This document shows positions 32,357-41,034 of a stretch of 54,063 nt of DNA, in pieces. Each line of letters starts with the position of its first letter. Position 1 is the stretch's first letter. The DNA comes from an uncultured Clostridia bacterium. GTDB taxonomy: Bacteria; Bacillota; Clostridia; TANB77; CAG-508. Where the stretch lies: positions 89,589 through 143,651 of the forward strand of contig CALXWM010000001.1 in assembly GCA_944392425.1 (NCBI GenBank), in the 5' to 3' direction. A model generated the notes under the pieces. The model saw nothing but the letters and a program-made list of their open reading frames with translations. It had not been told where the DNA came from and made no database searches. The position numbers and the translations under genes are program-made.

Positions 32357-35300
32357 ATGAATATGAAAAAGTTGAAGTATTGTATACTTATAATATCAAT
32401 CTTAATAATTGCCTTAATAATAAGTGTATTAATAAAAAGGACAGATATCCAATATTTAATTAATGACAAAGCAAAAATGAATATGTCAGTATTAGCTGAA
32501 AATAATAGTTGGGATATATCAAAAGATGGAGATGGAAGCATAATAGCTACACTTTCAGCAGATGGAACTTTAACTATATCTGGAACTGGAGAAATGAAAG
32601 ATTGGAATATAAACGATTCTACAGATTGGCACAACAATGAATACATAGACTTGGTTAAAAATGTAGTTATAGAAGATGGAATAACAAGTATAGGAAGCTG
32701 GGCATTTTATGGCTGTAGAAGCTTAACCAATATAGAACTACCAGAAGGATTAACAAGTATTGGCAGGAGTGCATTTTATGGCTGTAGAAGCTTAACCAAT
32801 ATAGAAATCCCAGAAGGAGTAACAAGTATAGGAAGTTATGCATTTTCGGACTGTAGTAGCTTAACTAATATAAAACTACCAGAAGGATTAACAAGTATAG
32901 AAGAAAGAACATTTGATGACTGTAGTAGCTTAACCAATATAGAACTACCAGAAGGATTAACAAGTATAGATGAGTATGTATTTTATAGCTGTAATAGCTT
33001 AACCAATATAGAACTACCCAAAGGATTAACAAGTATAGAAGACAATACATTCTTTTTATGTTCAAGTTTATCAAATATAAAAGTTGATATAAACAATACC
33101 GAATATATGGATGATGAGGGAGTATTATATACAAAAGACGGCAAACAATTGTTACAATATCCACCTAAGAAAGAGGATATAAGTTATATAGTTTTAGAGA
33201 CAGTAACAAGTATAGGAAAGTATGCTTTTGATGACTGTAGTAGCTTAACCAATATAGAACTACCAAAAGGATTAATAAGTATAGGAGAGTATTCATTTTG
33301 GGACTGTAGTAGCTTAACAAATATAGAAATCCCAGAAAGAGTAACAAGTATGGGCAGTTATGCATTTTATGGCTGTAGTAGCTTAACCAATATAGAACTA
33401 CCAGAAGGATTAACAAGTATAGGAAGCAATGCATTTAATCACTGTAGTAGCCTAACAAATATAGAAATCCCAGAAGGAGTAACAAGTATAGGAAGTGGTG
33501 CATTTAGTTACTGTAGTAGCTTAACCAATATAGAACTACCAGAAGGACTAACAAGTATAGAAGTTGGAACATTTTATCACTGTAGTCACCTAACAAATAT
33601 AGAAATCCCAGAAGGATTAACAAGCATAGGAGATAATGCATTTGATGGCTGTAGTAGTTTAACCAATATAGAAATCCCAGAAGGAGTAACAAGTATAGGA
33701 GATAGAGTATTTAATAACTGTATAAGCTTAACAAATATAGAAATCCCAAAAGAAGTAACAAGTATAGGAAATATGGCATTTTATGACTGTAGTAGTTTAA
33801 CCAATATAGAACTACCAAAAGGATTAACAAGTATAGGAGAGTATGCATTTTATGGCTGTAGTAGCTTAACCAATATAGAACTACCAAAAGGAATGACAAG
33901 TATAGGAAAGGGGGCATTTGGGTTTTGCACTAGTTTAGAAGAAATTAAAATCCCAGAAGGAGTAACAAGTATAGGAGAATATATGTTTTCTCTATGTAGT
34001 AGCTTAACAAAAGCTATAATACCTAAAACAGTTACAACAATAGCTTCAAATGCATTTGGAGGTTACAAAAATCTAAATATATTGTGTGCAAGCAATAGTA
34101 CAGCAGAGTCATATGCAATAGAAAAAGGATTAAATTATACATTAGATGACATAGCTCCAAATGTAGAAATATCAAATAATGGAACAAATAATCCAGTAAA
34201 ACAAATGAATACAACAGTAACAGTAACAGATAACTTATCAGGAGTAAGTAGTACAAAATACTTATGGAGTACAAAAAGCGAAAATGTTCAAGAAAATGAA
34301 ATAACAAATGTATTAGAAGAAGGACAAACAATAACGACACCAAAAGAAACAGGAGAATACTATTTATGGATATTAGTAGAAGATAAAGTAGGAAACAAAG
34401 CTATAACCAAAAGTAATGTATTTAATATAGATAATACAGCTCCAACATTAGAAATACAATACACACCAAATACATATACAAAAGAAAATGTAACAGCAAA
34501 AATAACAGCAAATGAAGAAATTCAAGGAGTAGCAGGATGGACATTATCAGTAGATAAAAGAGTACTAACAAAAGAATATACAGAAAATACAGAAGAAACA
34601 ATAACAGTAATGGACTTAGCAGGAAATGAAACAACACAAGATATACAAATAAATAAAATAGATAGAGAAAATCCAACAATAAGTTTATCTTCAAATGGAA
34701 CTGTAGAGACAGTAAAAGAAGCAAATACAACAGTAACAGTAACAGATAACTTATCAGGAGTAAGTAGTATAAAATACTTATGGAGTACAAAAAGTGAAAA
34801 TGTTCAAGAAAGTGAAATAACAAATGTATTAGAGGGACAGACAATAACAACACCAAAAGCAACAGGAGAATATTATTTATGGTTATTAGTAGAGGATAAT
34901 GCAGGAAATAAAGCTATAACAAAAAGTAATTTATTTAATTTAGATAATACAGCTCCAGAGGGAGAAGTACAATATAATATTTCTGGAGATAAAAAGAGTT
35001 GTTTAGTAACAATAAGTTCTAATGAAGAGTTACAAGAAGTAACAGGATGGACATTATCAGTAGATAAGCAAAAATTAACAAAAGAATATACAGAAAATAT
35101 AGAAGAAAGTATAGAAATAAAAGATAAAGTAGGAAATATAACAGAAGTAAAGATAAAAATCACAGGAATTGAAGAACCTATGTTTAAAGTAAAAGAATAT
35201 ATAATAAAAGGAACATACATAAGAAATATACAACCACAAACAGTATATTCAAACTTTATAAAAAATATAGTAACAAATCAAAGTTATGAAATAAAAGAAG

Positions 35301-35560
35301 GAAATATAACAATAACAGGAATAGACAAAATAAAAACAGGCCAAAAATTAATACTAAAAAATACAACATATACATTAGTGGTAACAGGAGATATAAATGG
35401 AGATGGAGATATAAAATTAAGTGATTTATCAACATTAAAGATGCAATTAACAGGAAAAAGAAGTTTAACAGGAGCGAGTAAAGAGGCAGGAGATATAAAT
35501 GAAGATGGGGATATAAAATTAAGTGACTTATCAAAAATGAAGAAAATCATAATTGAATAA
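32357..35560 (+). CDS. BspA-type (TpLRR/LRR_5) surface protein with Ig-like stalk and C-terminal dockerin
   Basis: About 19 repeats of the 23-aa unit LTNIELPEGLTSIGxxAFxxCSS. The C-terminus has duplicated Ca-binding loops GDINGDGDIKLSDL...GDINEDGDIKLSDL. The true start may be ATG 32363. Confidence 0.88.
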   Translation: MNMKKLKYCILIISILIIALIISVLIKRTDIQYLINDKAKMNMSVLAENNSWDISKDGDGSIIATLSADGTLTISGTGEMKDWNINDSTDWHNNEYIDLVKNVVIEDGITSIGSWAFYGCRSLTNIELPEGLTSIGRSAFYGCRSLTNIEIPEGVTSIGSYAFSDCSSLTNIKLPEGLTSIEERTFDDCSSLTNIELPEGLTSIDEYVFYSCNSLTNIELPKGLTSIEDNTFFLCSSLSNIKVDINNTEYMDDEGVLYTKDGKQLLQYPPKKEDISYIVLETVTSIGKYAFDDCSSLTNIELPKGLISIGEYSFWDCSSLTNIEIPERVTSMGSYAFYGCSSLTNIELPEGLTSIGSNAFNHCSSLTNIEIPEGVTSIGSGAFSYCSSLTNIELPEGLTSIEVGTFYHCSHLTNIEIPEGLTSIGDNAFDGCSSLTNIEIPEGVTSIGDRVFNNCISLTNIEIPKEVTSIGNMAFYDCSSLTNIELPKGLTSIGEYAFYGCSSLTNIELPKGMTSIGKGAFGFCTSLEEIKIPEGVTSIGEYMFSLCSSLTKAIIPKTVTTIASNAFGGYKNLNILCASNSTAESYAIEKGLNYTLDDIAPNVEISNNGTNNPVKQMNTTVTVTDNLSGVSSTKYLWSTKSENVQENEITNVLEEGQTITTPKETGEYYLWILVEDKVGNKAITKSNVFNIDNTAPTLEIQYTPNTYTKENVTAKITANEEIQGVAGWTLSVDKRVLTKEYTENTEETITVMDLAGNETTQDIQINKIDRENPTISLSSNGTVETVKEANTTVTVTDNLSGVSSIKYLWSTKSENVQESEITNVLEGQTITTPKATGEYYLWLLVEDNAGNKAITKSNLFNLDNTAPEGEVQYNISGDKKSCLVTISSNEELQEVTGWTLSVDKQKLTKEYTENIEESIEIKDKVGNITEVKIKITGIEEPMFKVKEYIIKGTYIRNIQPQTVYSNFIKNIVTNQSYEIKEGNITITGIDKIKTGQKLILKNTTYTLVVTGDINGDGDIKLSDLSTLKMQLTGKRSLTGASKEAGDINEDGDIKLSDLSKMKKIIIE
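32680..34060 (+). repeat. 69-bp intragenic tandem repeats encoding LRR units (two blocks)
   Basis: Recurring TGTAGTAGCTTAACCAATATAGAACTACCAGAAGGATTAACAAGTATAG with 69-nt period. Confidence 0.9.
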
Positions 35561-35816
35561 AAATAATTGAAGTTAGTGTAAAATTATTGTAGGCAAAATA
35601 TAAAAATTTTTTGATATATATTGAAAAAACACAACACATTATAGCAAAAATAATGAAACCAAGGAAAATAAAAAATGTAATATAAATATAATATTATTAA
35701 TAAAAATGTTACTTCCGTAACAGTAAAAGAAATAATAAAGAAGTTTCTCACTTGTTATATATGCATATATATAATAGAATAAATAAAAATAGAATATAAG
35801 AGGGAGTATTACAAAT

Positions 35817-40142: not shown

Positions 40143-40230
40143 AAAATAATTGAATAAAAAATAAAAAAGTACTTGAAATAAAAATATAATTATGACATAA
40201 TATAATTGATTTTTACGAAAGGAGAAAAGC

Positions 40231-41034
40231 ATGAAAAAAATAATCAGTATAATAATAATTAATGTATTAATTATATTTTCATTAAGTTTAAATTCATATG
40301 CGGCACAAACGGAAACAAATTTTCGAATAGAACTAATATCAAACAAGACGACAGTAACTAAAGGTGATACAGTAGAAATATCTGTTAAAATAAAGAATTT
40401 AACAGGCGTAGGGGAAGGAATAAATGCATTTTTGGGAACATTTAAATATGATACAAATGTTTTTGAAAAAGTAACAAAGTCAGATATGAAGTCACAAAAT
40501 GGATGGGATGCACCAGAATACAACGAAGAAAATGGAAAAATTATAACATGTAAAGGTGAATACATAACAAATGATGAAATTATTTTTACAATAGACTTAA
40601 AAGTTAAGGAAAATACATCAGTAAAAAATACAACTTTGCAAATTGATGAACCTGAAGCAGCCAATGATAATGACTATGTAGGAAAAGCTGGTACACTAAA
40701 TTTGGAGATATTAGAAAAAACAGACACAGAAAAACCTGATGAAGAAAATCCAGACACAGAAAAACCTGATGAAGAGGATCCAGACACAGAAAAACCTGAT
40801 GAAGAGAATCCAGACACAGAAAAACCTAGTACAAACAGTAGTTCAAATAATAATCAAAATAATAATTCTAATTCAGGAAAAAATGAAAATACAAATATAG
40901 ATAATACAACAGCAGGACAGAAAATACCACAAACAGGAGAAAAATTAAGCTTTACTATTGTAGGTTTAATAGTATTAATTACTATTGGAATAATTTCATA
41001 TATTTTATATAGAAAAAATAATATAGCTAAATAA
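40231..41034 (+). CDS. Cohesin-like domain protein with acidic linker and sortase signal (IPQTG)
   Basis: Signal peptide; V..GDTVEISVKI.N....INAF.G.FKYDTNVFE cohesin-like pattern; DTEKPDEENP repeats; IPQTG followed by a TM and RKN tail. Confidence 0.75.
   Translation: MKKIISIIIINVLIIFSLSLNSYAAQTETNFRIELISNKTTVTKGDTVEISVKIKNLTGVGEGINAFLGTFKYDTNVFEKVTKSDMKSQNGWDAPEYNEENGKIITCKGEYITNDEIIFTIDLKVKENTSVKNTTLQIDEPEAANDNDYVGKAGTLNLEILEKTDTEKPDEENPDTEKPDEEDPDTEKPDEENPDTEKPSTNSSSNNNQNNNSNSGKNENTNIDNTTAGQKIPQTGEKLSFTIVGLIVLITIGIISYILYRKNNIAK
40721..40827 (+). repeat. 30-bp tandem repeat (about 3.5 copies) encoding the DTEKPDEE(N/D)P linker
   Basis: Repeated CAGACACAGAAAAACCTGATGAAGA(A/G).ATC. Confidence 0.9.

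Follow-up and report, generated by a model that had tools for sequence, protein, structure and literature searches.

We analyzed a window of 54,063 nucleotides (the whole stretch of DNA under study) from an uncultured Clostridia bacterium of the TANB77 lineage, and focused on three consecutive open reading frames (ORFs) that span positions 32357–41034 on the plus strand. The first two encode large proteins with leucine-rich repeats (LRRs) and a C-terminal dockerin, here designated cargo 1 and cargo 2, and the third encodes a small protein with a single cohesin domain and a C-terminal sortase motif. The boundaries given for these genes in the initial annotation, which had been made from the sequence alone, were correct. 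Cargo 1 (32357–35560, plus strand, 1067 aa) and cargo 2 (35817–40142, plus strand, 1441 aa) both matched the BspA-type LRR profile (LRR_5, PF13306; E=3.4e-166 and 3.1e-125, respectively) and the dockerin profile (Dockerin_1, PF00404; 33.7 and 33.9 bits, with a curated cut-off of 22.9 bits). The LRRs of cargo 1 could also be seen in the DNA as arrays of 69-nt repeats at 32674–33082 and 33202–34011. From the N-terminus, cargo 1 contained a hydrophobic segment (residues 8–26), the LRR region, Ig-like stalk modules, a β-stranded X-module and a type I dockerin. Cargo 2 followed the same plan, but its LRR region was split and its stalk modules were doubled; a DNLSG..KYLWS motif was present twice in cargo 1 and four times in cargo 2. 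The matches located between the LRRs and the dockerin were Ig-like in both proteins (OmpL47-type, Big and PKD). No glycoside hydrolase (GH), carbohydrate-binding module (CBM), SLH, LysM or LPXTG domain was detected in either LRR protein (Pfam, E≤0.1). Two assignments to named LRR proteins were rejected: the HupY/LrrG adhesin model (NF047961), which has a cut-off of 1250 bits, gave 213.5 and 174.5 bits, and the match to Gli349 was also far under its cut-off, both indicating likeness at the level of repeats only.

The X-module of cargo 1 (residues 931–1007; 35147–35377, plus strand) was recognized by a lineage-specific hidden Markov model (HMM) with E=1.3e-25 and was followed by the type I dockerin (residues 1006–1067; 35372–35557, plus strand). 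In cargo 2, the corresponding X-module and dockerin occupied residues 1305–1441 (39729–40139, plus strand; E=1.4e-25 for the X-module and 3.1e-27 for the dockerin). The dockerin was composed of two repeats of a Ca loop and a helix, GDINGDGDIKLSD and GDINEDGDIKLSD, which matched at 15/22 positions and each contained a DxNxDGxIxxxD loop. Internal symmetry of this degree appears to accompany dual binding modes in known dockerins. In an AlphaFold2 (AF2) model of the last 138 residues of cargo 1 (mean predicted local distance difference test score, pLDDT, 90.8), a seven-strand β-module was followed by a three-helix dockerin. The latter could be superposed on the type I dockerin of Clostridium thermocellum Xyn10B (2ccl_B) with a root mean square deviation (rmsd) of 0.8 Å (TMt 0.92, Z 8.8), and the same protein was matched by sequence with E=6.8e-6. 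The X-module was modeled as seven strands and a short helix (pLDDT ~94). Foldseek and VIA-align searches revealed no convincing solved relative of this module, only weak rows over residues 10–80 with Z≤3.1, and we therefore assigned no fold to it. Structure matches of the X-module and dockerin taken together were also weak (5m0y_B, probability 0.23; 4iu2_B, Z 5.6 at an rmsd of 5.9). According to the lineage HMM, this conserved β-module precedes all five dockerins of the genome.

In the LRR part at the N-terminus, the two LRR proteins were 52% identical, compared to 76% in the C-terminal 475 aa. Their X-dockerin regions were identical at 394/417 nt, and the final 300 nt of the two genes (35261–35560 and 39843–40142) differed at only five positions (295/300 identical). 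The tract covering the dockerin is likely a gene-conversion tract, and the near-identical ends as a whole could have arisen by gene conversion or be kept alike by a strong constraint to fit a single socket. The lengths of public relatives sharing this X-dockerin (70–91% identity) were 758, 1218 and 1441 aa. Because the dockerin ends are near-identical, the LRR parts are only 52% identical and strain variants range from 758 to 1441 aa, the proposal of the initial annotation that one socket accepts interchangeable heads is reasonable.

The third gene (40231–41034, plus strand) encodes a putative anchoring scaffoldin of 267 aa, which contained a signal peptide, a cohesin, an acidic linker, an Asn-rich spacer, an IPQTG motif, a transmembrane (TM) segment and a basic tail. 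Its signal peptide had a canonical end as judged by eye (NSYA|AQTE). The cohesin domain (residues 27–164; 40309–40722, plus strand) scored 37.3 bits with PF00963 (cut-off 24.1; 40 bits in a six-frame search) and 167.9 bits with the lineage cohesin HMM. The linker (40713–40827, plus strand) was built of a tandem 30-nt (10-aa) repeat in 3.8 copies with 94% matches, and 21 Asp and Glu residues were counted in 75 residues. The IPQTG motif (residues 232–236; 40924–40938, plus strand), which was also identified by eye, was followed by a hydrophobic stretch and the basic tail. As in the LRR proteins, no GH or CBM domain was found at Pfam E≤0.1, nor was an SLH or LysM domain. Thus, all the components named in the initial annotation were recovered: two LRR proteins ending in dockerins with a duplicated Ca loop, a small protein made of signal peptide, cohesin, acidic repeat linker and IPQTG signal, and no recognizable GH or CBM domain in the three proteins.

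A HMMER search of the full library with the cohesin domain identified 793 cluster representatives at E≤0.001, from which a 61-row alignment was built. The AF2 model obtained with this alignment (pLDDT 96.1, predicted TM-score 0.90) had the nine-strand jelly-roll expected of a cohesin and matched 120 PDB chains at E≤0.001 in Foldseek, with cohesins in all top rows, which bore out the predicted fold. The best superpositions were with non-cellulosomal cohesins of Clostridium perfringens (2vo8, 2jh2 and 2w1n; TM-score 0.77–0.81). The type III cohesin of ScaE (2zf9_A) ranked 49th (TMq 0.60), and the domain was not classified as type III. A single cohesin, a C-terminal sorting signal and the presence of sortases in the genome together agree with an anchoring scaffoldin of the ScaE/Sca2 type, one that would act like ScaE but lies outside its cohesin clade.

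The three genes lie on one strand, and no terminator-like site was detected between them in a scan of 31900–43000. The sole site in this region was a hairpin at 41050–41081 (plus strand) with a 13-bp stem and a T-rich tail, located 16 nt past the cohesin stop codon.

Predicted docking and surface display

We modeled the cohesin together with two Ca ions and the X-dockerin of cargo 1. The complex scored 0.65 (0.63, 0.66 and 0.65 in individual runs), compared to 0.02 for the best of three controls; the pass mark used is reached by 58/80 solved complexes and by 2/110 mismatched pairs. The model contained 62 contacts, with 100% contact agreement between runs and pLDDT≥88 for the partner. Both dockerin helices (chain residues 91–105 and 129–138) were placed on one face of the cohesin, and the X-module was predicted to lie outside the interface. 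Together with the HMM matches, the cohesin fold, the operon layout, the sortase genes and the genome census described below, this model supports the structural part of the initial annotation, namely that a sortase-anchored, single-cohesin scaffoldin docks LRR proteins and does not assemble an enzyme complex. We conclude that the three genes probably form a surface-display module, in which the cohesin would dock the LRR proteins at the wall.

In the proposed mechanism, the 267-aa protein would be secreted and its IPQTG motif cut by one of the sortases of this organism, resulting in a covalent link to peptidoglycan, and the acidic and Asn-rich linker would present the single cohesin beyond the wall. 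The two LRR proteins would be exported, with cleavage of their signal peptides, and would bind the cohesin non-covalently and in a Ca-dependent manner via their C-terminal type I dockerins. As these dockerins are near-identical, the two cargos would compete for one socket. The predicted outward order is wall, linker, cohesin and dockerin, X-module, Ig-like stalk and LRR head with a distal N-terminus. Such a layout would be that of a fibrillar adhesin, and the LRR heads may have an adhesive or receptor function.

Several observations weigh against this proposal or reduce the support for it. The complex model was computed with our own alignments and with Ca ions, unlike the calibration of the tool, and Ca was not scored; it covered one pair, the LRR dockerin with its adjacent cohesin, and its pass may reflect memory of solved cohesin–dockerin complexes. 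Since many such complexes have been solved and the alignments and Ca differed from the calibration, the pass should be read as likeness to binders and not as binding. HMMs for LPXTG anchors were marginal in the cohesin protein (17.3 against 20 for Pfam; 15.9, equal to the cut-off, for TIGR01167 over residues 232–264). The terminator evidence is weak because shuffled sequences contained 1.9 such sites on average compared to the one found, and a promoter scan was uninformative (87 sites, 80.2 in shuffles). Three metatranscriptome runs from two studies contained 0.62, 0.49 and 0.27 of the sampled sequence words of the locus, and these word shares suggest, at most, that the three genes are transcribed. 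Membership in LRR_5 is uninformative with regard to the ligand. Finally, the N-termini of the LRR proteins resemble signal-anchors more than cleavable signal peptides, with no clear AXA motif.

This last point is the basis of the main alternative, which was retained because the LRR N-termini lack a cleavage motif. It proposes that the N-terminus of each LRR protein is a membrane anchor and that the dockerin clips to the wall cohesin, so that the protein would form an envelope-spanning tether with the LRRs near the membrane. In both proteins, a 19-residue uncharged N-terminal run was followed directly by KRTD, with no c-region and no clear small residues at positions −3/−1, and an additional dockerin protein of this genome (on contig C22, see below) also lacked an AXA motif. 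In contrast, canonical sites were present in the cohesin proteins and in the dockerin proteins of contigs C28 and C40 (SYA|A, ASA|V, SFA|E and SNA|E). In addition, 10 dockerins of Ruminococcus bromii were assigned to putative membrane proteins (PMC4611034). Judged by their sequences, the LRR proteins may thus stay membrane-anchored through the N-terminus. On the other hand, an N-terminal head, a stalk and a C-terminal attachment site appear in the same order in wall-anchored fibrillar adhesins. Moreover, the signal peptides of gram-positive bacteria are often long and atypical, and our motif check was crude. We consider the tether unlikely, and the probable arrangement remains a wall-anchored cohesin that displays the LRR heads distally. 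The initial annotation had described the LRR proteins as secreted and devoid of an anchor; the absence of SLH, LysM and LPXTG domains agrees with this description, and the possible signal-anchor qualifies it.

Dockerins and cohesins in the genome and in relatives

The window represents an ordinary chromosomal region of a low-GC (~28%) spore-former and contains prfA, pcrA, mreBC, PBP2, spoIIE, acpS and tatD. The assembly comprises 1,535,296 bases in 70 contigs and is 94% complete. The relatives of its PcrA were uncultured gut Clostridia known from metagenome-assembled genomes (MAGs), and Clostridium sp. CAG:273 was 69% identical. Two genes for giant surface proteins were found directly upstream of spoIIE: one of 1609 aa (18475–23304, plus strand) with DUF11 and SdrD_B domains, and one of 1992 aa (23318–29296, plus strand) with SdrD_B and an LPPTG sorting signal followed by a TM segment and a basic tail. 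As the cohesin proteins end in [IV]PQTG and not in LPPTG, the two groups may be served by different sortases. On the other side of the locus, shortly past the terminator-like hairpin, a gene at 41216–42742 (plus strand) encodes a 508-aa protein with an N-terminal TM segment and eight WG (KWG-type) β repeats (PF14903, E=2.1e-41).

We identified five Dockerin_1 and two Cohesin matches in the genome, and lineage-specific HMMs found the same five and two, lifting the second cohesin, on contig C22, to E=1e-18. Six sortase genes were present, and [IV]PQTG closed five ORFs, both cohesin proteins included. The dockerin proteins were the two LRR proteins, an 895-aa protein on C22, a protein with SH3_3 and a protein with Amidase_3 (1.7e-31) and Big_2. 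No GH or CBM family was detected by Pfam in any of the five. A small exported gene followed every dockerin gene on the same strand; it was the cohesin–IPQTG protein on C1 and C22. The C22 protein (locus L001, 2512–5199, plus strand) matched no Pfam family and gave a weak lead to a right-handed β-helix (Atlas 0.92, 150 shared features); should this fold hold, a β-helix protein with a glycan-active or adhesive role would be possible. The SH3_3-dockerin gene of C28 (L002, 2749–6504, plus strand) and the Amidase_3-Big_2-dockerin gene of C40 (L003, 2244–5038, minus strand) each precede a gene for a paralogous exported protein with an Ig-like domain, a Gly/Ser-rich linker, one or more cadherin-like domains and a TM segment. 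The possibility that these downstream proteins contain a hidden cohesin was rejected: hhalign covered only the signal peptide and the first strand (probability 84% and 68%), the lineage cohesin HMM gave no match, and the Atlas leads were Big_2-like and all below 0.9. These proteins may represent another class of dockerin partner, or they may be neighbors unrelated to the dockerins.

Relatives were examined in a family sample of 61 genomes from 50 genera with sizes of 0.9–1.9 Mb. Family profiles detected Dockerin_1 in 54/61 genomes and Cohesin in 49/61. At least 31 of the 128 cohesin matches, in at least 20/61 genomes, began 111–299 nt past a dockerin on the same strand; at least seven further cohesin matches had a dockerin no more than 600 nt downstream, probably within the same protein. 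As these counts were made among the 150 dockerin matches listed out of 243, they are lower bounds. Within the genus, a dockerin gene was directly upstream of a cohesin gene in 3/7 loci first fetched, with cargo that was transglutaminase-like in one case, contained NPCBM and F5/8 type C domains in another and had no recognized family in the third. BLAST searches with the LRR region detected no match among six loci of genus relatives, and the LRR cargo is therefore not conserved at this position. Thus, of the synteny that the initial annotation had proposed to check, the dockerin-then-cohesin order recurs, but the LRR cargo does not. A search with the full-length cohesin protein found matches in 20/41 relative genomes; many of these rows covered the linker and anchor only (query residues ~150–262), so the result is not a count of cohesins, and the family HMM censuses were used instead.

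Among the best 150 cohesin relatives, 68 had a sortase signal, 67 of them with a single cohesin, and 23 had a dockerin, one of which also had a sortase signal; the median length was 245 aa. Some relatives showed more elaborate arrangements. One genus relative (G012; L095 1680–10988, minus strand) contained a 3102-aa ORF with an N-terminal cohesin (residues 26–160), a dockerin (residues 292–347), GLUG motifs and the N-terminal region of an M26 IgA1-protease; by its domain content, this protein could both dock and be docked. In G015 (L096 2687–5204, minus strand) and G010 (L097 7103–9607, plus strand), an LPQTG-anchored cohesin and a cohesin-X-dockerin adaptor formed a three-gene array with another small cohesin protein, suggesting that assembly may have two tiers in some species.

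These censuses bear on two other explanations of the locus. One is that the adjacency is non-cognate, the true partners of the cohesin being other dockerin proteins, for example the Amidase_3 or SH3_3 wall hydrolases; such a system would serve chiefly to place enzymes that remodel peptidoglycan, with the LRR dockerins binding elsewhere or to nothing. Two of the five dockerin proteins do resemble wall hydrolases (Amidase_3, 1.7e-31, and SH3_3), known anchoring cohesins, Sca2 among them, accept several dockerins, and complex modeling was limited to one pair. However, the LRR dockerin and its adjacent cohesin passed by a wide margin in the model, the helix residues of the C28 and C40 dockerins (NDYL and VDYM) differ from SDLS in the LRR dockerins, the C28 and C40 genes each have a downstream partner gene of their own, and the dockerin-then-cohesin order is recurrent across the family; we regard this explanation as very unlikely. 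The least probable reading, and a highly improbable one, is a remnant or minimal degradative complex of the cellulosome, amylosome or mucinolysome type with the LRR proteins as accessories: cohesin–dockerin systems are best known from such assemblies, relatives carry glycan-binding cargo (NPCBM and F5/8 type C) and the C22 protein gave the β-helix lead mentioned above, but none of the features of a cellulosome (multi-cohesin primary scaffoldin, dockerin-bearing fiber GHs, CBM3) was found, as the genome contained only two single-cohesin proteins and no multi-cohesin scaffoldin, 0/5 dockerin proteins had a GH or CBM family, and no match to GH5, GH9 or CBM_3 was detected in the 94%-complete genome, the search leaving aside GH48, GH13 and other families.

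Comparison with known systems and significance

The closest published counterparts of the cohesin protein are anchoring scaffoldins of gut ruminococci. In Ruminococcus flavefaciens, ScaE is a single-cohesin, LPXTG-anchored scaffoldin to which ScaB and the binding protein CttA attach through dockerins, and 28 LRR modules were reported among the dockerin proteins of strain FD-1 (PMC2930009). The protein described here resembles ScaE of R. flavefaciens and R. champanellensis in having a single cohesin and a sortase signal, and also in that CttA is a binding protein and not an enzyme (PMC7456326). In contrast to ScaE, its cohesin is structurally closer to cohesins of type I and of C. perfringens (TM-score 0.77–0.81) than to type III, its dockerin partner is type I-like, the module preceding the dockerin shows no clear likeness to known X-modules, and no cellulose-degrading context was found in searches for GH5, GH9 and CBM_3. 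The position of the cargo gene just upstream of the anchor gene is presumably also a feature of the sca cluster.

Sca2 of the R. bromii amylosome is likewise a gut Firmicute cohesin protein with a C-terminal sortase signal, and in vitro its recombinant Coh2 bound two dockerin proteins, one containing LRRs and the other a peptidase (PMC4611034). Sca2 also anchors GH13 amylases; no dockerin-bearing carbohydrate-active enzyme (CAZyme) was found in our genome, and the cargo and anchor genes are adjacent. The non-cellulosomal cohesins of C. perfringens glycosidases and toxins (NagH, NagJ and GH33) were the best structural matches (2vo8, TM-score 0.78/0.81; 2jh2, 0.77/0.81; 2w1n), and these pairs, like the system described here, function outside of plant-fiber degradation. 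The C. perfringens modules link secreted enzymes together and are not known to involve a sortase-anchored single-cohesin protein or LRR cargo.

Other gut systems are similar in some of their parts. The Limousia mucinolysome, known from animal-gut MAGs, includes cSca5, whose cohesin is N-terminal and LPxTG-anchored (PMC12997984), and scaffoldins of R. difficilis contain LRR, Ig-like and mucin-binding domains for which an adhesion role was proposed (PMC13463774). Unlike the system examined here, both organize many CAZymes, and the LRRs of R. difficilis are on scaffoldins and not on dockerin cargo. A 2024 survey described "scaffoldin-containing" microbes that are not cellulolytic and have single cohesins with TM helices at the C-terminus (PMC11557425). 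Similar LRR-dockerin proteins may appear in supplementary tables of the R. bromii and R. difficilis papers (PMC4611034 and PMC13463774).

With ScaE, Sca2 and LRR-dockerin proteins as precedents in print, the proposed mechanism is of a known type, and the novelty implied by the initial annotation did not hold, since anchors of this kind, LRR-dockerin proteins and non-cellulosomal cohesins have all been published. A study of non-cellulosomal cohesins by Peer et al. in 2009 reportedly covers related ground and may already describe similar gene pairs. We found no paper on TANB77 and dockerins in a search that excluded subscription journals and supplements; the lineage, the apparent lack of cellulase-type cargo and the recurrent cargo-beside-socket order were not described in the searchable papers. 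What the locus adds is an extension of the ScaE/Sca2 anchoring principle to a lineage in which no cellulase-type cargo was found, the probable cargo here being adhesin-like proteins in place of enzymes.

This lineage consists of abundant, uncultured gut Clostridia with reduced genomes. Sequence words of the locus were detected in at least 20 runs, which belong to 10 studies; most are metagenomes of the chicken gut, and the source sample may be among them. The LRR proteins are candidates for the attachment of these organisms to the host or to neighboring cells. Because cohesin (140 aa) and dockerin (62 aa) are small and their genes stand next to each other in many divergent versions, the cognate pairs may also represent a natural library of orthogonal protein connectors.

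The cargo types met in this genome and in its relatives included LRR heads as well as IgA1-protease-like, transglutaminase-like, lectin-module and wall-hydrolase proteins. As each cargo is typically encoded beside its own small sortase-anchored socket, cassettes of cargo and socket could be acquired, duplicated and exchanged as a whole. We tentatively suggest, with less than even confidence, that in this family of uncultured gut Clostridia with small genomes (~1–1.9 Mb) the cohesin–dockerin pair may serve as a general plug and socket for surface proteins that do not degrade fiber, the cargo typically being encoded beside its own socket. If true for the family as a whole, this would be one of the principal ways in which these bacteria assemble the surface that faces the host.

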